A stretch of DNA of 48,307 bases from a virus. Of this stretch, positions 1 through 48,307 are shown piece by piece (position 1 is the stretch's first letter; each line of letters begins with the position of its first letter). The position numbers and the translations under genes were made by a program. The notes below the pieces were generated by a model that searched no databases, was not told where the DNA came from, and was given only the letters and a program-made list of their open reading frames with translations. The DNA lies in IMG/VR virus record IMGVR_UViG_3300009506_000099, positions 1 through 48,307 of that record; one strand, written 5' to 3'.

Positions 1-144
1 ACTGCGCCATCGACCAAGAGTGATACCTCTGGAGGTGGTACTCTCCTTTGTGTATCGAACTTCGCATCATCGAAGCCTCTCGTGGATAACGATACGCTTC
101 AGGTGACCTACACCAACACCACTCAGGATGATGGTGCTTAATCA
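1..144. repeat. Terminal overlap, copy A (identical to 48164..48307)
   Basis: Direct comparison: the first 144 nt repeat the last 144 nt exactly. This indicates a circular assembly overlap or a short direct terminal repeat. Confidence 0.9.
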
Positions 145-443: not shown

Positions 444-1394
444 GTGGGACAGGTCGTCACTACTTATAGGCATCATATAGCCCCCCATAATCCTCCTGGA
501 GGTTCTACGGAGTATGGGGTGTTAAGTGATGGTATTAAGTGGGGAGATTACGTTGTTCCTAGTAATGATGCTCTATATTTCGATGACTGGGAGACACGAG
601 ATCTCTCATATGATGGAGGGGATGGTACCTTTCATTGGCATGGACTTAATCGAACCTCTCTAGTTATAGGAGATGGAGCTAATGATTGTTATGTAGTGTA
701 TAATGGTTCCCCTGTGATGCTTGGTCCTTATTCTGGGAAAGAATGGGAGAATGGACCAGGTACGGGGACCTGCGCTATGCGGTTCCGCTACCCTGCCAAT
801 GACAATCAGTCCGAACAGCGGTGGCACTTTGATGGAGGTTTATCAGAACTCTGGTTCGGATATTGGTGGAAGGTGCCCATCAACTTCTATCACGGCACCG
901 TGGGTAGTGGCTCCAATCAGAAACTTAATGCTCTCTGGATGGATGAATATGAGTTTCAAGGAGATGGTGTAGGGCCGACTTGGACTTGCCAGTTTCGACG
1001 TGCCGATACAAACGGCAGTAGTCGTTTATCTTGTTATCATATTAGTTCTGATCCAGGAGCGTCTAGTGGTGAAACTGGGCAGGTTGGGGGATCAAGCAAC
1101 TTAATTACTACTCCTGATGATAGGGGTAGATGGATGTTTCTTCTCTACTACATCAAGGCCGCAACTGGAATTGGTACACTTGATGGAGTAGCCAAGATCT
1201 ATAGGATGTGGGAGGGTGGATCTTCTTTCGAGCTATTGTGGGAAGACACAGATATGGACACATATGTTCCTGCTGGCCTTAGTGGATTTCATTATGGCTA
1301 TATCATGGGGTGGAATAATACCCTCTATGCCGAAGAGACCGAGTTCCTGATGGATGACTTTACAATCTGGAACTATAATCCAGGGCTGGTCTGA
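444..1394 (+). CDS. Tail-associated protein with ConA-like jelly-roll, polysaccharide-lyase-like domain (putative depolymerase)
   Basis: 316 aa. The pattern LWFGYWWKVPINF..GSNQKLNALW..RGRWMFLLYYIK..DGVAKIYRMW..FLMDDFTIW resembles polysaccharide-lyase/glucanase jelly-roll families. The N-terminus carries one SDGIKWGD unit shared with the 995-aa repeat protein. Confidence 0.5.
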   Translation: MGQVVTTYRHHIAPHNPPGGSTEYGVLSDGIKWGDYVVPSNDALYFDDWETRDLSYDGGDGTFHWHGLNRTSLVIGDGANDCYVVYNGSPVMLGPYSGKEWENGPGTGTCAMRFRYPANDNQSEQRWHFDGGLSELWFGYWWKVPINFYHGTVGSGSNQKLNALWMDEYEFQGDGVGPTWTCQFRRADTNGSSRLSCYHISSDPGASSGETGQVGGSSNLITTPDDRGRWMFLLYYIKAATGIGTLDGVAKIYRMWEGGSSFELLWEDTDMDTYVPAGLSGFHYGYIMGWNNTLYAEETEFLMDDFTIWNYNPGLV

Positions 1395-2128
1395 TGTCTA
1401 TTAGCGTTGTCTCAACAAGTGCACCACAGACGAACGGCAACAACTGGGTTGTTGTGGATCTGGACTCCACTCCTATCCTGGAGGACGATCTCATCATCCT
1501 CTGGTTTGAGGAACCAAATGACCTCGCCATCACGGCAGACCCAACTGGGTTCACTCCGGTCTGCGACGAAATCAATACCAGTACAGGTGACGACAGACAG
1601 AATGACGTCCAGTACATGTGGGCCTCTGGTGGCGAGGAGTCGAACTCCTACCACTGGGTCCTATCCAACTCTGGCCCTCACGTCCAGGGGTCCATCGTCC
1701 TACGCGGTGTAGATAGGTCTACTCCGTTCGATGTTACCCCAGTACACGCATCACACCATCTAACTGGTCTGGATAATACCACTCCAGCTTGCGCATCAAT
1801 AGTTACTGTTACTCCTGGTGCTCTGATTATAGAACTTTCCTTCATCACTGGGGGTAATTCATCTGATGCATACTCTAGTAATGGATCGGCCACAGAGTTT
1901 GTGAACTTCCACAACCAGACAGCCAACCCGCTGTCTGGCATGAGTGTCCTGGGAACCTATTACGAGAAGGCGACGGCAGGAGCCTATACTGGATCTACTC
2001 ATACTTATGTAGATGGGGTATCTACTAACGACTATATCAATATCATCCTAGCATTCAGACCGGCTCAGGATGCAACTCCTCCTGGCGAATTGGTGACGAC
2101 GAAGTATCATGACATCGCTTATCCCTGA
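1394..2128 (+). CDS. Hypothetical virion/tail protein (244 aa)
   Basis: Long ORF whose start overlaps the upstream stop (ATGA-type junction), in the tail-gene block. No motif recognised. Confidence 0.6.
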   Translation: MSISVVSTSAPQTNGNNWVVVDLDSTPILEDDLIILWFEEPNDLAITADPTGFTPVCDEINTSTGDDRQNDVQYMWASGGEESNSYHWVLSNSGPHVQGSIVLRGVDRSTPFDVTPVHASHHLTGLDNTTPACASIVTVTPGALIIELSFITGGNSSDAYSSNGSATEFVNFHNQTANPLSGMSVLGTYYEKATAGAYTGSTHTYVDGVSTNDYINIILAFRPAQDATPPGELVTTKYHDIAYP

Positions 2129-2435
2129 CTGGACTCTGTGGTATGATGATGAAACAGTATTCACATCCTTGGATGGGGAGCCTAATGACTCGCCAAGATG
2201 GGGAGTAGTATGTGTGACTCAGCCAGGAAAGGCGAAGGATGTACTTTGGAACGAGTGGGCTTACATCTACCACGAAGATATGGAAATATGGACACAGCAT
2301 GACCTAGTAGGTTTCATAGATCAGCAGGTACACTTCTCACCAATGATTACCTGTGTACGTATTGGTAGAGATATGCTCACAGGGAGGTTCAAGGAGATCG
2401 TGGAAAGAGCTACGAAAGAGGCTAGAGGTCTCTAA
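2109..2435 (+). CDS. Hypothetical protein (108 aa)
   Basis: ORF packed between tail genes. Its stop overlaps the start of the next gene. Confidence 0.5.
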   Translation: MTSLIPDWTLWYDDETVFTSLDGEPNDSPRWGVVCVTQPGKAKDVLWNEWAYIYHEDMEIWTQHDLVGFIDQQVHFSPMITCVRIGRDMLTGRFKEIVERATKEARGL

Positions 2436-5422
2436 TGGGTAATCCGGTCACCGGCTTTCTGCATTGGCGTCTATACGCTGATGATAATGCAGATGTTGAT
2501 TCTCAGACACCAATCGGTAATGAGGACAGCGTTACTGAGGTCGTGACTAAAGGATCTAAGTACCATTTTAGGTTTAGCCAGTATAACGATAATAGTGCTG
2601 CATTCAATGGATCTTTCCAGCTTAGAGCTAGGAAGAACGGTGGCTCATGGTTCGATGTCACTAATGTATCTTCTGATATTTCTATAGCTGATGGGACACC
2701 AGATACGAGTGGCGGGGATCTAAACTGTGATACACAGATTCTGACTTCCCATCCTACGTTCTCTTGGGAGGCTGATGGTTATTATGAGGAGACCGATGGA
2801 AATACTCCATCATCTGCACACGCAAAGAGCACGTTCTGGGAGGACCAGTGGTGCATCCTAATAGGTAATGCGTTATCTGGAGGTGATTATTTCGAGTTCG
2901 ATATCACCACGGATGACGGGACTAGGGATACTCCAGGTACGTTCCCTAAGATTACGGTAGCATCTGGTGGAACGACTGAGCAAGTATCACCTTCTGATGG
3001 AATCAAATGGGGAGATCAGGTCACTGGAGAGGCTACTGTACTTGGTAGTATCTCTGATGGGTGGAAGATAGGAGATATTCTCTCTAGTAAGGCTGAAGCT
3101 AAGGTAGGATTAACTGATGGTTGGAAGTTCGGGGATATCCTTCTAGCAATCAATCAAGTCTCTCTAAGTGATGGGATTAAATGGGGTGAGGCTCTCACTG
3201 TCCTGGTTGGGGGAGTAGCTGATCTAACCGATGGATGGAAGATCGGTGAGGATATTGATACAGTTACCTATGAGCAATTCTCCGGTGACGGTATCAAGTG
3301 GGGAGATCTAGTAGATCCTCGAATAGATTTTCTTGAGTATCTAACGGATGGATGGAAGCTGGGAGACTTAAGTGAGGCTATCCTCCTCATCATTGAATCA
3401 GCTTCAGATGGTATCAAGTGGGGAGATACTGCCTCAGTATCCACCAAGTATCCTGTATCCTCAATAGATGGTATCAAGTGGGGTGATTCTCTATCCATTC
3501 AGATAGTCTATGAGACTACCCTAACGGATGGAATTAAGTGGGGTGATCTAGCTGAGGGGCAGGCTGATGAGGGAGAGAGTGTATCAGTATCCGATGGGAT
3601 ACTATGGGGAGATTCTCTCGATGTAAGTGCAACAGTTCCAGTCTCCGCATCAGACGGGATAAAGTGGGGTGACCTAGCGGAAGCTGATTCAGGGGCATTT
3701 GAATCTATATCTGATGGTATCCTATGGGGAGATCAGGTAGTTAGTGAAGCGAATGTTCCTGTATCAATAAGTGACGGTATCCTATGGGGAGATCGTCTGG
3801 CATTCCCCATAGCTGGATTAATAGATGACTTTAATGGTCCTTCTCTTGATACAAGTCTATGGTCTAAGAGTGAAGGTGGAGGAGCTACAGTAACATATAT
3901 TGGAGGAGTAATAGAGTTCTATATTACTTCTCCGGATATCGGAACTGGGGATCTTACTAGTGTATATGAGTATGATCTCAGGAATAGTTCCATATATGTA
4001 AAGTTCGATCTTACTGATTTTATATCTAGTTCCTGGGGATGGGCTATGTTCTTCCTCGGAGACTTGACTAATGGGCTTGGTGTTTATCATGGAGGTACTA
4101 CTTATAAGACATTCAGTAAGAAGAACGGTAGTGAAGCCAATCATATCATAACTCATTCCAGGTATACCTATCCTTGGTGGAGGATTAGAGAAACTGGAGG
4201 AACGGTATACTGGGATTGTGCTCAGGATAATGGAGGATCTCCTGGATCATGGGAGAATGAGTGGACTAGAGATGTAGATCTATGCTCAGTCCTATCTGGA
4301 TTGCTCGTTAACTTTAGGATATATAGAGGTAATACTCAAGCTTACAATCTTGATTTCTATATTGATGGAGTTAATACAGATGCCAACCCAATCCTCACTG
4401 ATGGTATAAAGTGGGGCGATTCGGTAGAGGCTTCCTTTGTTCTCTCTGATGGAATAATATGGGGAGATTCATTAGGAGTAAAAGTAGGATTCAAGACTGA
4501 AATAGTAGATGGATGGATATTAGGGGATCTTGCATCTGCCGGAGCGGAGTATGTATCTCTGACAGATGGGATACTCTGGGGTGAAGATATTGATACCATC
4601 ACTTATGAGAGTTTCCCAGGTGATGGAATTAAGTGGGGCGATTCGGTCTTTGCATACTCTGGAGAGAGTGCTCATCTTACAGATGGAATACTTTGGGGCG
4701 AGGATTTCGATATCACTATCATCGAGACTTTCGATGATGAGTGTATCCTCTGGGGAGATTCGGTATCTGTTCATGTAAATCTCTCTGACTCTCTCCAGGA
4801 TGGTATTAAGTGGGGGGATATCCCAACTCCAGCTATCTCTATATCAGAAGATCTGACAGATGGGATTAAGTGGGGAGATATAGTGGCTGGGGATAATTCA
4901 GTCCCAGCTTTCCTTCAAGATGGAGTGAAATGGGGAGATACTTTAACTCCTATCCAGAAGATCCAGGTATCTATATCTGATGGATTTATCTGGGGAGATC
5001 AAGTAGATGGAGAGACATCTGACTTCTTCCCAGTATCGGTGCAGGATAAGATACTTTGGGGAGACTCTATCAGTGAGGATGTTACTTATCCAGCTTCTGT
5101 GTCAGACGGTATAAAGTGGGGGGATTCCATATCTACTCAGACTGATTACCATATCAGTCAAACTGATGGGATAAGATGGGGAGATTCAGCAGTTGGATCT
5201 TTAGGTGGGGTGACTCTCGTTGGTGTAGAAGATGGTATAAAGTGGGGAGATTATTCTACTGTATTAGCGGCTGGAGGAGTCATACAAGATGATCGGTTGA
5301 ATATGGATGCTTATATGACTCAACTCTATTCCATGAGATCTTCTCTAAATAGTAGGTTGACGATGGATCCTGATGATATAGAAGGTAGAATGCACATAGA
5401 TGTAAGGATAGATAATGTCTAA
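2435..5422 (+). CDS. Tail fibre / receptor-binding protein: 29 xDGIKWGD-type repeats flanking a central LamG/ConA-like domain
   Basis: 995 aa. 14 repeats lie upstream and 15 downstream of a domain that starts DDFNGPSLDTSLWSK, a typical opening for a ConA-like lectin/glucanase fold. Confidence 0.8.
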   Translation: MGNPVTGFLHWRLYADDNADVDSQTPIGNEDSVTEVVTKGSKYHFRFSQYNDNSAAFNGSFQLRARKNGGSWFDVTNVSSDISIADGTPDTSGGDLNCDTQILTSHPTFSWEADGYYEETDGNTPSSAHAKSTFWEDQWCILIGNALSGGDYFEFDITTDDGTRDTPGTFPKITVASGGTTEQVSPSDGIKWGDQVTGEATVLGSISDGWKIGDILSSKAEAKVGLTDGWKFGDILLAINQVSLSDGIKWGEALTVLVGGVADLTDGWKIGEDIDTVTYEQFSGDGIKWGDLVDPRIDFLEYLTDGWKLGDLSEAILLIIESASDGIKWGDTASVSTKYPVSSIDGIKWGDSLSIQIVYETTLTDGIKWGDLAEGQADEGESVSVSDGILWGDSLDVSATVPVSASDGIKWGDLAEADSGAFESISDGILWGDQVVSEANVPVSISDGILWGDRLAFPIAGLIDDFNGPSLDTSLWSKSEGGGATVTYIGGVIEFYITSPDIGTGDLTSVYEYDLRNSSIYVKFDLTDFISSSWGWAMFFLGDLTNGLGVYHGGTTYKTFSKKNGSEANHIITHSRYTYPWWRIRETGGTVYWDCAQDNGGSPGSWENEWTRDVDLCSVLSGLLVNFRIYRGNTQAYNLDFYIDGVNTDANPILTDGIKWGDSVEASFVLSDGIIWGDSLGVKVGFKTEIVDGWILGDLASAGAEYVSLTDGILWGEDIDTITYESFPGDGIKWGDSVFAYSGESAHLTDGILWGEDFDITIIETFDDECILWGDSVSVHVNLSDSLQDGIKWGDIPTPAISISEDLTDGIKWGDIVAGDNSVPAFLQDGVKWGDTLTPIQKIQVSISDGFIWGDQVDGETSDFFPVSVQDKILWGDSISEDVTYPASVSDGIKWGDSISTQTDYHISQTDGIRWGDSAVGSLGGVTLVGVEDGIKWGDYSTVLAAGGVIQDDRLNMDAYMTQLYSMRSSLNSRLTMDPDDIEGRMHIDVRIDNV
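2993..3793 (+). repeat. Intragenic repeat array 1: 14 units of [STG]DG[IW][KIL][WILF]G[DE], period about 19-22 aa
   Basis: Counted in the translation (SDGIKWGD, SDGWKIGD, TDGWKFGD ... SDGILWGD). Nucleotide strings such as gatggtatcaagtgggg and ggtatcctatggggagatc recur. Confidence 0.9.
4397..5251 (+). repeat. Intragenic repeat array 2: 15 units of the same motif
   Basis: Units run from TDGIKWGDS to EDGIKWGDY. LTDGILWGEDIDTITYESFPGDGIKWGD here mirrors LTDGWKIGEDIDTVTYEQFSGDGIKWGD in array 1. Confidence 0.9.
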
Positions 5423-5717
5423 GATTCATCTGGCTCTTCCGTATAAGACTGACTCCCTGTTCAAGATTCTCCTTAGGAACAATGAGGGAGTTGTACAGAC
5501 AGGAGCTACAGGGACATATATAGTAGAGGATATTGATGGAGGGACTGTTCAGAGTGGATCTATGTCAGAGTTGTCAGCTGGGTATTATTATTTCGCTATC
5601 CCAGATGATATATCTGTTAGTCCGGGAGATATATTGACCGCTAAGGTCACTATGCTCAAGGGTGGCTATCAGTGCTATGGAGAGTATGAACTATTCGTCG
5701 AAGTCGACAGGAGGTAG
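5415..5717 (+). CDS. Hypothetical protein (100 aa)
   Basis: ORF overlaps the upstream stop by 8 nt. It sits in the virion module. Confidence 0.55.
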   Translation: MSKIHLALPYKTDSLFKILLRNNEGVVQTGATGTYIVEDIDGGTVQSGSMSELSAGYYYFAIPDDISVSPGDILTAKVTMLKGGYQCYGEYELFVEVDRR

Positions 5718-9788: not shown

Positions 9789-10715
9789 ATGCCTGTCGTA
9801 CGAGGACAGTGGGATGAGCTCCTGCGACCTGGAGCCAACAAGGTGTTCCTTGATGAATATCCTCAGCTTCCTTCTCTTTACACGAAGATTTTCTCTGTTG
9901 AGACTTCGGGTAAGAGCTTTGAGGATGACCTGGTAGCCACTGGTCTGCCGATTGCCGTGAGCAAGCCCGAAGGTGAGCCAATCGCCTTCGACCGACCGAA
10001 GTACCGTGGGAAGGTTCGGTACCTCCATGCCGGATATGGGCTTGGTTACGAGATCACTCGGGAGGCCGTTGAGGATGATGTCTATAAGGCTCTCAATAGT
10101 AAGGGAGCCGCAAACCTGGCTTGGTCCCTGAGGGAGGCTGAGGAGGTTACTGCTTGGAACATCATCAATCTCTCGTTCACCACAGTTCAGGCTTATGATG
10201 GGGTTGCTCTCTGCTACGATGCTCACCCCACTGTTACCAGCACGCTGGCTAATAGACCTGGAACTGATGAGGATCTCTCTACTGCGGCTCTGAAGGCTAG
10301 CATGGAGAGATGGTGGGCTCTCACTACTGATCGAGGCCTGAAGATCCAGATTCTTCCCACTATGCTCTTGGTGGGGAATGCGAACTTCTGGGCCGCTCAG
10401 GAGATTCTCCAGACTCAGTATATCACTGGTGCAGCCACTGGTGGTGAGGTTGATACCATCGTGTCTGAGAGGGTCCCGAATATGGTTGGGAAGCTCGGCC
10501 TGACTCCGATGCGTTCCAACTATATCACCGATGATGATGCCTGGTGGACTCTTGGAAGTAAGGGAGTTCACAAGCTCCGGTTCTATTGGAGGACCAAGCC
10601 TCAGAGTGTTGATGGTTTGGATAAGAGGCGTCAGATCTTCTGGTATGGGATCTTCGCTCGTTGGAGCGCTGGTGTCACTGACTGGAGAGGTATTGACGGC
10701 TCTACTGGAGCCTAA
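9789..10715 (+). CDS. Major capsid protein
   Basis: 308 aa with strong RBS AAAGGAGGAG upstream. It follows the portal, scaffold and decoration-like genes. Confidence 0.7.
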   Translation: MPVVRGQWDELLRPGANKVFLDEYPQLPSLYTKIFSVETSGKSFEDDLVATGLPIAVSKPEGEPIAFDRPKYRGKVRYLHAGYGLGYEITREAVEDDVYKALNSKGAANLAWSLREAEEVTAWNIINLSFTTVQAYDGVALCYDAHPTVTSTLANRPGTDEDLSTAALKASMERWWALTTDRGLKIQILPTMLLVGNANFWAAQEILQTQYITGAATGGEVDTIVSERVPNMVGKLGLTPMRSNYITDDDAWWTLGSKGVHKLRFYWRTKPQSVDGLDKRRQIFWYGIFARWSAGVTDWRGIDGSTGA

Positions 10716-44976: not shown

Positions 44977-45498
44977 ATGAGTCGAGATCTCTTACCCACG
45001 CTCTCTCCAGAGAAGAGCTATCAACCTGAGAAGTGGACATCTCTTCACAGATATATGGTTCTCCTTGAGATAGCTGGGAAGAAACCTAAAGAGATCGCAG
45101 AGATCGTAGATATGTCGATCTCTAGGGTTTCAGTTATCCTCGGTGACCGCCGAGCAGAGATCGAACGGCTCTCCCTTGCAGAAAAACTCTCCGATCAGAT
45201 TACAGATATCCATACCAAGCTTCAACTCTATGCTCACGAGGCTCTCGAAACTGTTATTGATGAGATGAGAGCCCCGGAGAATAAGAGTGAACTTAGAGTG
45301 AAGGTAGGTTTCGGGATCCTCGATAGGGCAGGCTTTACCCCTGTTCAGAAGCAGGTAGTAGCTCATGCAGAGATTCCTGTAGAGATTGCTGAGAGAATGG
45401 AGATTGTCGCCTCAGAACTCAAGGAGAATAGGCCAGTTTATGAGAAGGTAAAGCCGAAGATTGACGAAGCTGAGTTCGAGGTTATGGAAGATGACTGA
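44977..45498 (+). CDS. HTH protein, small terminase subunit candidate
   Basis: 173 aa directly upstream of, and overlapping, the large terminase gene. KKPKEIAEIVDMSISRVSVILGD resembles a sigma-region-4/LuxR-type HTH. Confidence 0.5.
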   Translation: MSRDLLPTLSPEKSYQPEKWTSLHRYMVLLEIAGKKPKEIAEIVDMSISRVSVILGDRRAEIERLSLAEKLSDQITDIHTKLQLYAHEALETVIDEMRAPENKSELRVKVGFGILDRAGFTPVQKQVVAHAEIPVEIAERMEIVASELKENRPVYEKVKPKIDEAEFEVMEDD

Positions 45499-47200
45499 TC
45501 TCGACCTTGGTATGCTCGTCGAGGAGGTCTTTGAGCCCTCAGAGATTGAGAATCTACCATCTCTAAAGGGTTTGAAGAAGGCTCACGGCGATCTTACTGA
45601 GTCTCTTAGGCAGGGAATCCGCTCTCAGGCCCTCAAAAGTACCTATTTCCTAGCAAAAGTAGTCCTTGGATACACGAAACTCAACATCCGAGTCCACCTT
45701 CCGATGTGTGAGTTCATAGATCAGACAGAAGCCTACACTCGTAGGATGGCTCTGATGCCTAGGACTCACTTCAAGACGACTATTTGGACCATAGCTCACT
45801 CAATTAAGCTCGTCTGTAACAATCCGAATATAAGAATCCTCATGATAGCGGACACTGGGACTAACGCCAGCCGCTTTATGCAGGAAATCCAGCAGCACTT
45901 CGAGTTCAATGAAGTATTTCGATGGGTTTTCCAGGAGATTATCCCAGATAACTTCACAAAAACGCGTTGGAGCCAATATGAGATGGTCGTTAAGAGGTCT
46001 CTCATTGCCCGTGAGCCGACGATCGACGCTATTGGCGCACTGGGAGGCTCAGAATCTAGGCACTACGATTGGATCAAGGCGGATGACCTCGTTACTGAGA
46101 AGTGTATTCGCTCGGATGTGGAGATGGATAAGGTAATCCATTGGTCAGGGGGCCTCGAGAGCCTTCTCATCAATCAAAAAGGGGATCATATTGACTTTGT
46201 GGGGTCAAGAAAGAAGAAGGGAGATCTGTACGAGCACCAGGAGAAGATGTATAGCCTAGGGATGGAGAAAGTCGACATCGGACCCCATGCTTATGCGATA
46301 GGAGAGATGGCCGTCTTCACCCGTTCAGCGATTGAAGAAGGAGAAGTTATATTTCCTGAGCAGATCTCCCTTCGTTTCCTCATTCGTCTCCGTAAGACTG
46401 ATCCTCAACGCTACCACGCTCAGTATGCTAACTCCCCCAAAGGTACAGGTCTCAATACTTTCGATGTAAGGGATCTACGTTACTATACCTTTGATGGAGC
46501 TGGGAATATAATCTGTGTCCACAATAAAGATGTACTCCTCGAGGTATCACCATGGAGCCTTGACCGTATAGTTCTCTTCGATCCCTCGGTTGCCGAGAAG
46601 CAGGCTAACTCTCAACAGGCGATCATTGTAGTTGCTAAAGGCTCAGGGCCTTTTCGTATAGTGCTCGAGACTCACATTGGTCACTTTCTTCCAGATGAGG
46701 CCATTAAGCTACTTTTCGATATGGATAAGAAGTGGCATCCGTCAGTCGTCTCTATTGAGAAGAGAGGATTTCAGGGTTGGGTTAAGTATGGTCTCTCGGA
46801 GATTGCAGACCTTAAGGGAATCCCTTATCCTCCTATAGTCGAGTGGCCCCTAGAGGGAGCCTCGAACTCTCAGTGGAGTAAGGTCGAGCACATCAGAGCT
46901 ATGCAACCTATGATTAGGGCCAATTACCTTTGGGTACATGAGACTCAAGTGGATCTTATTGATCTCGTTGAATTCTATCCAAATGTGAGGTGGGATGATG
47001 GACTTGATGCTCTAGCCCAGGCGATGGACTACTGGCCTATGATGATGGATGAGCAAGAGGTTCAAGCTAAGAAGAGAGCTGAGGACGAGTTCCTCATGAA
47101 GAGTTTCCTCGGCTATTCTCCTCCTGAGGATAGCTGGGATGAGAGGGAGTTCCTCCGCTCATTCGATTATACAGGTTATAATCAGATATATGAAGCATAG
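45491..47200 (+). CDS. terL: Terminase large subunit
   Basis: MPRTHFKTT is Walker A-like, as in Terminase_6. DWIKADDL is Walker B-like. IVLFDPSVAEK opens an RNaseH-like nuclease domain. The track start is TTG 45461; ATG 45491 gives an ATGACTGA overlap with the upstream stop. Confidence 0.85.
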   Translation: MTDLDLGMLVEEVFEPSEIENLPSLKGLKKAHGDLTESLRQGIRSQALKSTYFLAKVVLGYTKLNIRVHLPMCEFIDQTEAYTRRMALMPRTHFKTTIWTIAHSIKLVCNNPNIRILMIADTGTNASRFMQEIQQHFEFNEVFRWVFQEIIPDNFTKTRWSQYEMVVKRSLIAREPTIDAIGALGGSESRHYDWIKADDLVTEKCIRSDVEMDKVIHWSGGLESLLINQKGDHIDFVGSRKKKGDLYEHQEKMYSLGMEKVDIGPHAYAIGEMAVFTRSAIEEGEVIFPEQISLRFLIRLRKTDPQRYHAQYANSPKGTGLNTFDVRDLRYYTFDGAGNIICVHNKDVLLEVSPWSLDRIVLFDPSVAEKQANSQQAIIVVAKGSGPFRIVLETHIGHFLPDEAIKLLFDMDKKWHPSVVSIEKRGFQGWVKYGLSEIADLKGIPYPPIVEWPLEGASNSQWSKVEHIRAMQPMIRANYLWVHETQVDLIDLVEFYPNVRWDDGLDALAQAMDYWPMMMDEQEVQAKKRAEDEFLMKSFLGYSPPEDSWDEREFLRSFDYTGYNQIYEA

Positions 47201-47695: not shown

Positions 47696-48304
47696 ATGTA
47701 CGAAGAGTTTGATCCTAGAGTTCCGCCTGGCGTGGACTCAATGGAGATGCTCCATCAGATGGCGAAGGACAATAGAGGTAAAGGTCCTTTCCGTCTGAGA
47801 GGGGCATTTCAGTTCGATCTGTATAGGCATGGATATCACATTGATAGGTGGTATCAGCCTAATATCGTTACTCAAGAAGGCCTAGAGTATGCTCTAGGTG
47901 TTGCTCTTATCAGTACCACTCAGATCACTGCTTGGTATATCCTCTTGAAGGATAATACCAATGATCCAGTTGATGGTACTGAGACATACGCCACACCTCT
48001 GTTCGTTGAAATCGCTGATTATGATGAGACGATCAGAGAAGCTTGGACTGGTGGTGCTATCTCTGGTACCACAACGAAGAGTGTGTCGAACTCTGGGACT
48101 CCTGCCGAGTTCACGATTAGCACGACTGTAACGATCTATGGTGCTGGACTTGTTGGTGGTGGGACTGCGCCATCGACCAAGAGTGATACCTCTGGAGGTG
48201 GTACTCTCCTTTGTGTATCGAACTTCGCATCATCGAAGCCTCTCGTGGATAACGATACGCTTCAGGTGACCTACACCAACACCACTCAGGATGATGGTGC
48301 TTAA
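47696..48304 (+). CDS. Hypothetical structural protein (202 aa)
   Basis: AAGGAGGAAAGG RBS upstream. Its 3' end is duplicated at 1..141 because of the terminal overlap. Confidence 0.6.
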   Translation: MYEEFDPRVPPGVDSMEMLHQMAKDNRGKGPFRLRGAFQFDLYRHGYHIDRWYQPNIVTQEGLEYALGVALISTTQITAWYILLKDNTNDPVDGTETYATPLFVEIADYDETIREAWTGGAISGTTTKSVSNSGTPAEFTISTTVTIYGAGLVGGGTAPSTKSDTSGGGTLLCVSNFASSKPLVDNDTLQVTYTNTTQDDGA

Positions 48305-48307
48305 TCA
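48164..48307. repeat. Terminal overlap, copy B (identical to 1..144)
   Basis: Same 144-nt string as the window start. It contains the 3' end and stop codon of CDS 47696..48304. Confidence 0.9.

Follow-up and report, generated by a model that had tools for sequence, protein, structure and literature searches.

Fibres built as beads on a string at the head-tail junction are the closest described counterparts of the locus analysed here. In the Escherichia myophage Bas63, the collar protein has an N-terminal rope that is wrapped by whisker dimers 'such as beads on a string', and this rope runs through grooves and completes each incomplete whisker sandwich (PMC12609058). In the Ralstonia podophage GP4, the rope is an independent protein that carries five Fiber-1 dimers (PMC12609058). 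The analysis of IMG/VR virus record IMGVR_UViG_3300009506_000099, taken over its full 48,307 nucleotides (nt) and called the window throughout, reveals a 995-amino-acid (aa) repeat protein that may belong to the same class of structure. We propose, with a probability of roughly 0.45, that this protein is the rope on which the beads of a head-tail junction fibre of the GP4 fibre I or Bas63 type are strung, with a 202-aa Gp80-like protein encoded in the same genome as its candidate bead (coordinates of all features in Table 1).

The repeats were examined with the pattern D[GEK][IWVFC][KILR][WILF]G[DE], which returned 28 matches in the 995-aa protein and 29 with the inclusion of a degenerate DECILWGD near aa 769. 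The first array spans aa 188-453 (nt 2996..3793) with 14 of these motifs and the second aa 656-939 (nt 4400..5251) with the other 15; 2000 residue shuffles of the same protein gave a mean of 0.004 matches and a maximum of 1. The open reading frame (ORF), the pattern count and the shuffles thus bear out the two arrays of 14 and 15 repeats described in an earlier, sequence-only reading of this DNA. The period of 19-22 aa given there is better stated as a spacing of 16-22 aa with a mode of 20 aa (16 of the 27 intervals), and both motif flavours that it named were recovered, DGIKWGD as such and DGWKIGD in the broader form DGWK[IFL]G[DE]. A block of about 28 aa is also common to both arrays (nt 3245-3307 versus 4580-4642, 78% nucleotide identity), with a weaker third copy at 4697-4759. 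The sequence-only reading had recognised this block correctly and had taken it as an argument for internal duplication; that argument does not stand, because the special unit, GEDIDTVTYEQFxGDG, present in three copies in the window protein, is found again in the homologues P0002, P0003 and P0122, which identifies it as a conserved unit type and not as evidence of recent duplication.

The proposal draws on the genes that accompany these repeats. Homologues of the 202-aa protein, traced by phmmer in IMG/VR loci (E 1e-18 to 1e-40), stand beside the repeat gene or one gene away from it in all flanked loci. They are present in 15 of the 25 loci, corresponding to 9 distinct phages, in addition to the window genome and the related scaffold L001, and the loci that have none are short or cut on one side. 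The linked module also occurs in a siphovirus (L008, with a tape-measure protein and a J-like fibre), where the pair lies just before the head-tail adaptor gene. Conserved linkage of this kind suggests that the repeats are docking sites on a rope and not, or not merely, autonomous solenoid coils. The partner family itself is part of the virion, since a profile of seven of its members matched the solved PDB chain 26la_U/44nx, annotated 'Structural protein', at E 2e-21, and this chain is ORF007 of Pseudomonas phage KPP25. Moreover, Pfam PF23140 (Gp80, 'Podophage GP4 fiber I protein') aligned end to end with two members of the family, with scores of 25.1 bits (E 2.5e-5) and 17.8 bits that both fall below the cut-off of 27.

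A comparison with GP4 brings out both the likeness and its limits. PDB entry 8jou contains 10 chains of GP4 gp80, and the adjoining gene gp79 (L015 8948-9925, minus strand) encodes 325 aa with about 10 units of 20 aa and the core phi-x-D/S-G-x-x-G, the periodicity giving a z of about 5.6 for the autocorrelation peak at lag 20. Our inference is that the GP4 rope is gp79, a protein without a Pfam family or a PDB counterpart by sequence; no literature naming the GP4 rope gene was found. GP4 encodes a small beta-sandwich protein beside a 20-aa-periodic protein, as proposed for the window, the approximately 10 gp79 units match the 10 gp80 chains in number, and the GP4 rope is an independent polypeptide, as the window protein is. 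The window differs in having 29 units against about 10, in the much stronger conservation of its D-G-x-K-x-G-D connector, and in arrays that are interrupted and capped by globular domains.

Bas63 resembles the proposed fibre in its beads-on-a-string principle and in gene order. Its collar gene gp4 (PDB 9mt4) adjoins the portal gene and is followed by the whisker gene gp5, so that the collar and whisker genes occupy a place next to the portal gene as the window repeat gene does. However, the Bas63 rope is a short N-terminal extension of an immunoglobulin (Ig)-like collar protein with four whisker monomers; it is not detectably periodic, and it has no globular cargo domains. A further counterpart is the Anabaena myophage A-1(L) (gp82-gp81-gp80), whose neck fibres are beaded, flexible and about 100 nm long with a distal carbohydrate-binding module (CBM), but whose beads are self-assembling trimers joined head to tail with no string protein, and no sequence relation to the window protein is expected.

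Under the proposed arrangement, each unit would consist of an amphipathic beta-strand of about 12 residues and a conserved 8-residue connector, x-D-G-x-K-x-G-D. The strand would slot into the open beta-sandwich of one copy of the 202-aa protein, giving a predicted stoichiometry of one bead per unit, with the connector as the joint to the bead that follows. The result would be beaded stretches of 14 and 15 sites with the globular central domain between them, and the polarity would place the globular N-terminal domain at the far end and the C-terminal tail at the neck, where it would fix the fibre. At an assumed 3-4 nm per unit, a rough calculation lets the fibre approach 100 nm, like the neck fibres of A-1(L), and it may serve reversible surface adhesion, as has been suggested for GP4 and Bas63. 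Support for this rope model comes from the company that the bead gene keeps with the repeat gene in well-flanked loci, and from the build of the unit, since a variable amphipathic strand joined to a conserved connector fits strand insertion.

Several observations weigh against the rope model. The links of the partner family to Gp80 are sub-threshold, the window's own partner protein gave no Pfam Gp80 match, and the hhalign comparison of the partner family with GP4 gp80 was not significant. The hhalign comparison of the repeat profile with gp79 was likewise not significant, and the identity of gp79 as the GP4 rope could not be confirmed. In the window genome four other genes lie between the partner gene and the repeat gene, and KPP25 and AP1 have the partner gene with no obvious DGxKxGD protein beside it. 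If beads bound as dimers, a super-period of 40 aa or an excess of even unit numbers would be expected, and neither was seen: similarity at lag 40 was no higher than at lag 20, and 83 arrays were even against 89 odd. In addition, no Ig-like collar or fibre-tail adaptor was identified, and nine units fold alone in AlphaFold2 with a predicted local distance difference test (pLDDT) score of 82, which suits a self-standing solenoid.

This prediction leads to the strongest competing explanation, in which the arrays form a self-standing beta-solenoid or a rod of stacked hairpins with one 20-aa unit per rung. Gly/Asp turns and Trp/Leu residues would then form ladders, the two rods would serve as rigid spacers for the globular domains, and the small protein of the linked gene would have a role of its own, as an adaptor, cap or chaperone. 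The AlphaFold2 model of the nine units (aa 281-453), built with a 40-row family alignment, is all-beta with a pLDDT of 81.9 and a predicted template modelling score of 0.77, values to be read with the caveat that the same arrays contributed several windows to the alignment, a possible source of inflated confidence, and that the coordinates were not inspected. Each unit appears in this model as one 12-residue strand and a compact DG-IK-WGD connector element; a full-length model from 3 sequences reached a pLDDT of only 33.5 and was of no use. A Foldseek search with the nine-unit model gave no significant match, the best PDB hit having E 0.07 with a template modelling score of at most 0.35 and the best BFVD hit E 0.012, and its weak neighbours were beta-solenoids, namely left-handed beta-helices, ice-binding proteins, FapC and tapirin. 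An outer-membrane beta-barrel, considered for the amphipathic 12-residue strands with Trp at both ends, was dropped in view of arrays of 4-27 units and the solenoids returned by Foldseek.

The repeats resemble beta-solenoids such as left-handed beta-helices, curli/FapC and ice-binding proteins in their period (about 18-22 residues), in their glycine-rich turns and in the inward-facing hydrophobics at alternating positions, and the strict 20-aa period and invariant glycines are typical of that class. Even so, the conserved part of the window unit is the connector and not the core strands: in the unit profile hydrophobic residues occupy all even positions, the strand varies, and strong conservation is confined to the connector. 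The alignment of several windows can also create unit-to-unit couplings, AlphaFold2 readily stacks strand-prone repeats, and a solenoid would leave unexplained why a Gp80-like gene stands beside the repeat gene in every well-flanked locus. We regard a self-standing solenoid as the main rival, less probable than the rope. The new solenoid or beta-helix fibre suggested by the sequence-only reading is allowed by the AlphaFold2 model and finds no significant fold match in the PDB or BFVD, and sequence comparison with solenoids was equally without a significant match.

The repeat is real, widespread in environmental phages and unnamed. Pfam searches with the whole repeat protein at E <= 1 and with each array at E <= 10 gave nothing beyond noise (E >= 0.17), the whole protein had no match among PDB sequences, a PDB sequence profile search with the repeats gave nothing below E 0.14, and a literature search found no occurrence of the motif strings, in keeping with the initial view that no named repeat family is involved. 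The repeat is not, however, peculiar to the window protein. A word-indexed search of 5.8 billion proteins found only two full homologues, and the same kind of search with a broad unit alignment found no matches, whereas an exhaustive HMMER search with a three-unit profile against 1.84 billion representatives returned 466 proteins at E <= 1e-3, 242 of them at E <= 1e-10, with the window protein (P0001) scoring 565 bits over 15 matched stretches. We define a DGxKxGD family here as proteins with at least three consecutive units at a strict period of about 20 aa that match the A2 profile, and the window protein falls within it.

Relatives keep a strict 20-aa period with the consensus [ST]-D-G-[ILV]-K-[LF]-G-D, in arrays that range from 4 to 27 units. 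Trp at the fifth motif position was seen only in P0001-P0003 and partly in P0018 and the fragment P0072, about five proteins, which by sequence places the window protein in a Trp-bearing branch of the 466-representative family. The N-terminal globular domains of the relatives are variable and include Laminin_G_3, DUF2341 and sialidase-like CBM domains. Among PHROG families, phrog_12240 (unknown function) matches the arrays of 7 of the 10 relatives tested and does not match the window protein at E <= 0.1. At the DNA level, a three-unit pattern gave 6 matches in IMG/VR, 19 in JGI metagenome contigs and zero in 185,579 GTDB species genomes. Related-locus searches yielded no relatives from IMG/VR, JGI contigs or GTDB genomes with an alignment of three proteins and one short contig with P0009 alone, and tblastn with P0012 and P0009 against GenBank phages found nothing, possibly through low-complexity masking.

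The arrays are old and are maintained at the protein level, as judged from their DNA. Units are mutually 60-80% identical, their conserved residues use mixed synonymous codons, and Tandem Repeats Finder detected no array in the repeat gene. The longest exact repeat is 19 nt (one pair), followed by four 18-mers, where shuffles give at most 14 nt. Strings of 17-19 nt, which the sequence-only reading had noticed and had regarded as possible drivers of expansion, contraction or cassette recombination, do exist and are merely the codons of the conserved heptapeptide; the role assigned to them is without support, given that the units are old and diverged, and recent duplication or cassette recombination was rejected on the same divergence.

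A related concern, raised at the outset, was that the array had been made or inflated by misassembly of repeats. The related scaffold L001 does have a run of N inside array A (at about 9300), a sign that assemblers struggle there; this gap splits the L001 repeat gene, so that its database product P0002 (753 aa) has the same architecture in truncated form. In the window, though, units that are only 60-80% identical, with no exact string above 19 nt, make unique assembly easy, the frame is intact across 2988 nt, an overlap of 144 nt closes the contig on itself, and the architecture recurs in three independent assemblies and in hundreds of relatives. Such an artefact is hence very unlikely, and we give it next to no weight.

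The N-terminal domain of the repeat protein, which varies across the repeat family, is homologous to a fragment encoded by L001 ORF 8633-9349 and to the N-terminus of P0133. The central domain provides the sole PHROG match of the window protein, phrog_14065 (unknown function), and is 28% identical to aa ~420-610 of Streptomyces phage Hiyaa gp13; in a tblastn search against 50,697 GenBank phages it alone matched, in Streptomyces phages. This domain gave no Pfam match at E <= 10 and no PDB match by sequence or by a three-sequence profile, and its AlphaFold2 model, with pLDDT below 50, was too low to use. The LamG/ConA-like core assigned by the sequence-only reading therefore failed to find a Laminin_G or other Pfam match or a PDB match, and is a putative fold. 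Hiyaa gp13 (L003 4765-8097), a 1110-aa 'minor tail protein' between the capsid and head-tail adaptor genes, resembles the window protein further in carrying its own array after the shared domain, with a period of roughly 20 aa, and differs in its repeat motif (…G.A…..AH…..K.R).

At the other end, the C-terminal tail holds strand-like mini-repeats of about 10 aa (RLNMD / LYSMR / RLTMD / RMHID). Nearly all relatives terminate in 3-5 mini-repeats of 10-11 aa, for example VTVTFTVKKTGTTFNVKKPSSTFTVKKPSATFTVK (P0004-P0045), and the window tail looks like a variant of these. The mini-repeats may interlock with a collar ring, and the tail is proposed to anchor the protein to the virion.

Where on the virion such an anchor would sit bears on a third explanation, in which the protein is a capsid fibre or head decoration of the Hoc type, its C-terminal tail binding the capsid lattice and its repeats and lectin-like domains projecting for adhesion. 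The gene lies in the head and packaging region, between the genes for the large terminase (TerL) and the portal; in siphovirus-type loci it stands just before the head-tail adaptor gene; Hiyaa gp13 has a comparable place between capsid and adaptor genes; and the Laminin_G_3, DUF2341 and sialidase-like CBM domains of the relatives would suit such a role. Gene position does not discriminate between capsid and neck, however, because the Bas63 collar and whisker genes occupy the same position. Nothing ties the C-terminal tail to capsid proteins, and the only family hint of the partner is to a neck fibre component; a capsid fibre with no relation to the neck is improbable in our judgement.

The genome is that of a tailed phage with an SU10-type portal (an SU10-type podovirus). 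Window positions 1-144 are identical to 48164-48307, which indicates that the genome is circularly closed, or else terminally redundant, and measures 48,163 bp. It encodes a large terminase (45461..47200), a major capsid protein (9789..10715) and two adaptor-like genes, for whose counterparts in the close locus L002 SU10_adaptor domains are recorded. The repeat gene is located between those for the terminase and the portal and not within the tail module, and the label 'tail protein' first given to its product is not shown by sequence. Comparison with two related contigs gave identities of 67-75% for core genes, about 35% for the repeat protein and 27-45% for its upstream neighbours, and the repeat gene and these neighbours are a fast-evolving accessory module.

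Table 1. Features of the repeat locus and of the linked partner gene in the window.
Feature	Coordinates	Strand	Remarks
995-aa repeat protein, proposed 'rope' (string) of a beaded neck fibre	2435..5422	+	open ORF, translation
N-terminal globular domain, aa 1-185, beta-rich	2435..2989	+	no Pfam match
Array A, 14 units of ~20 aa, aa 184-453	2984..3796	+	
Special unit GEDIDTVTYEQFSGDGIKWGD, 19-aa spacing	3245..3307	+	more copies at 4580-4642, 4697-4759
Central globular domain, aa 455-653, begins DDFNGPSLDTSLW	3797..4393	+	phrog_14065
Array B, 15 units, aa 652-940	4388..5254	+	
C-terminal tail, aa 941-995, proposed virion anchor	5255..5419	+	conserved in P0002, P0003, P0072
202-aa Gp80-like candidate 'bead' protein, proposed docking partner	47696..48304	+	phrog_8123
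316-aa protein, one canonical unit YGVLSDGIKWGDYVVP at N-terminus (nt 516-563), then globular domain	444..1394	+	
244-aa variable protein	1394..2128	+	only C-terminal ~44 aa (…GELVTTKYHDIAYP) conserved in L001
108-aa ORF, ends at repeat gene start	2109..2435	+	45% identity in L001
100-aa ORF overlapping repeat gene stop	5415..5717	+	conserved in all three close loci

Among the neighbours, the 316-aa protein, four genes upstream, carries the only DGIKWGD found outside the repeat gene in all six frames. Its L001 homologue is 27% identical and has a degenerate unit, PVFSDGFESGVW, and the single unit may act as a clip-on docking tag. The 100-aa ORF that overlaps the stop of the repeat gene is 52-53% identical in L001 and L002 and, by position and size, is a candidate collar or adaptor; it showed no similarity to the Ig-like adaptor gp77 of GP4 or to any PDB chain. 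It also gave a weak match to the N-terminal part of P0122, which at E 0.002 among 150 sequences does not convince.

A phi-T-(V/T)-T-Y signature recurs through the arrays and the upstream genes, at window positions 450-482, 2084-2125, 3251-3283 and 4586-4618. Its carriers are QVVTTYRHHIA at the N-terminus of the 316-aa protein, GELVTTKYHDIAYP at the C-terminus of the 244-aa protein, EDIDTVTYEQF in the special units of the arrays, and GEIVITRYNDIE in a 112-aa ORF upstream of the repeat gene in L002. These segments could be docking or pairing strands.

Further observations concern relatives of the partner gene and the surroundings of the repeat gene in other genomes. The bead homologue of KPP25 and that of AP1 each precede a second protein of about 147 aa with a gp80-like N-terminal pattern (KPP25 ORF006, L013 7470-7913; AP1, L012 7485-7928), and these two phages may encode a pair of paralogous bead proteins without any DGxKxGD rope. 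The Methanosarcina virus MetMV (L011 6911-8988) has a bead-like homologue of 44% identity, and the protein after it, of 501 aa, has at its end a few degenerate units of the DG type, each about 20 aa long. It is possible that the module crosses the divide between bacterial and archaeal viruses. In a 73-kb IMG/VR phage (L010 1-6846), genes for a glycosyltransferase, an aminotransferase and an acetyltransferase lie directly upstream of the repeat gene, which hints at sugar modification near the structural module.

A broader generalisation, which we put forward tentatively and consider possible, is that D-G-x-K-x-G-D is a general bead-docking code of tailed phages. One unit would then bind each Gp80-like subunit, the unit count would set the length of the fibre, single units would serve as clip-on tags, and gp79 would be the rope of GP4.

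Knowledge of rope-and-bead fibres is limited to two solved phages, and we found no description of a sequence signature of the rope. If the unit is a docking site, hundreds of unannotated metagenomic proteins, together with PHROGs 8123 and 12240, would gain a function, and fibre length and bead number would become readable from sequence. The module would also be shown to be mobile between podoviruses, siphoviruses and possibly archaeal viruses, and it would offer a natural system for fibres of programmable length with lectin-like cargo domains. If the arrays instead fold alone, they would represent an uncharacterised beta-repeat fold with no PDB counterpart that is common in environmental phages.

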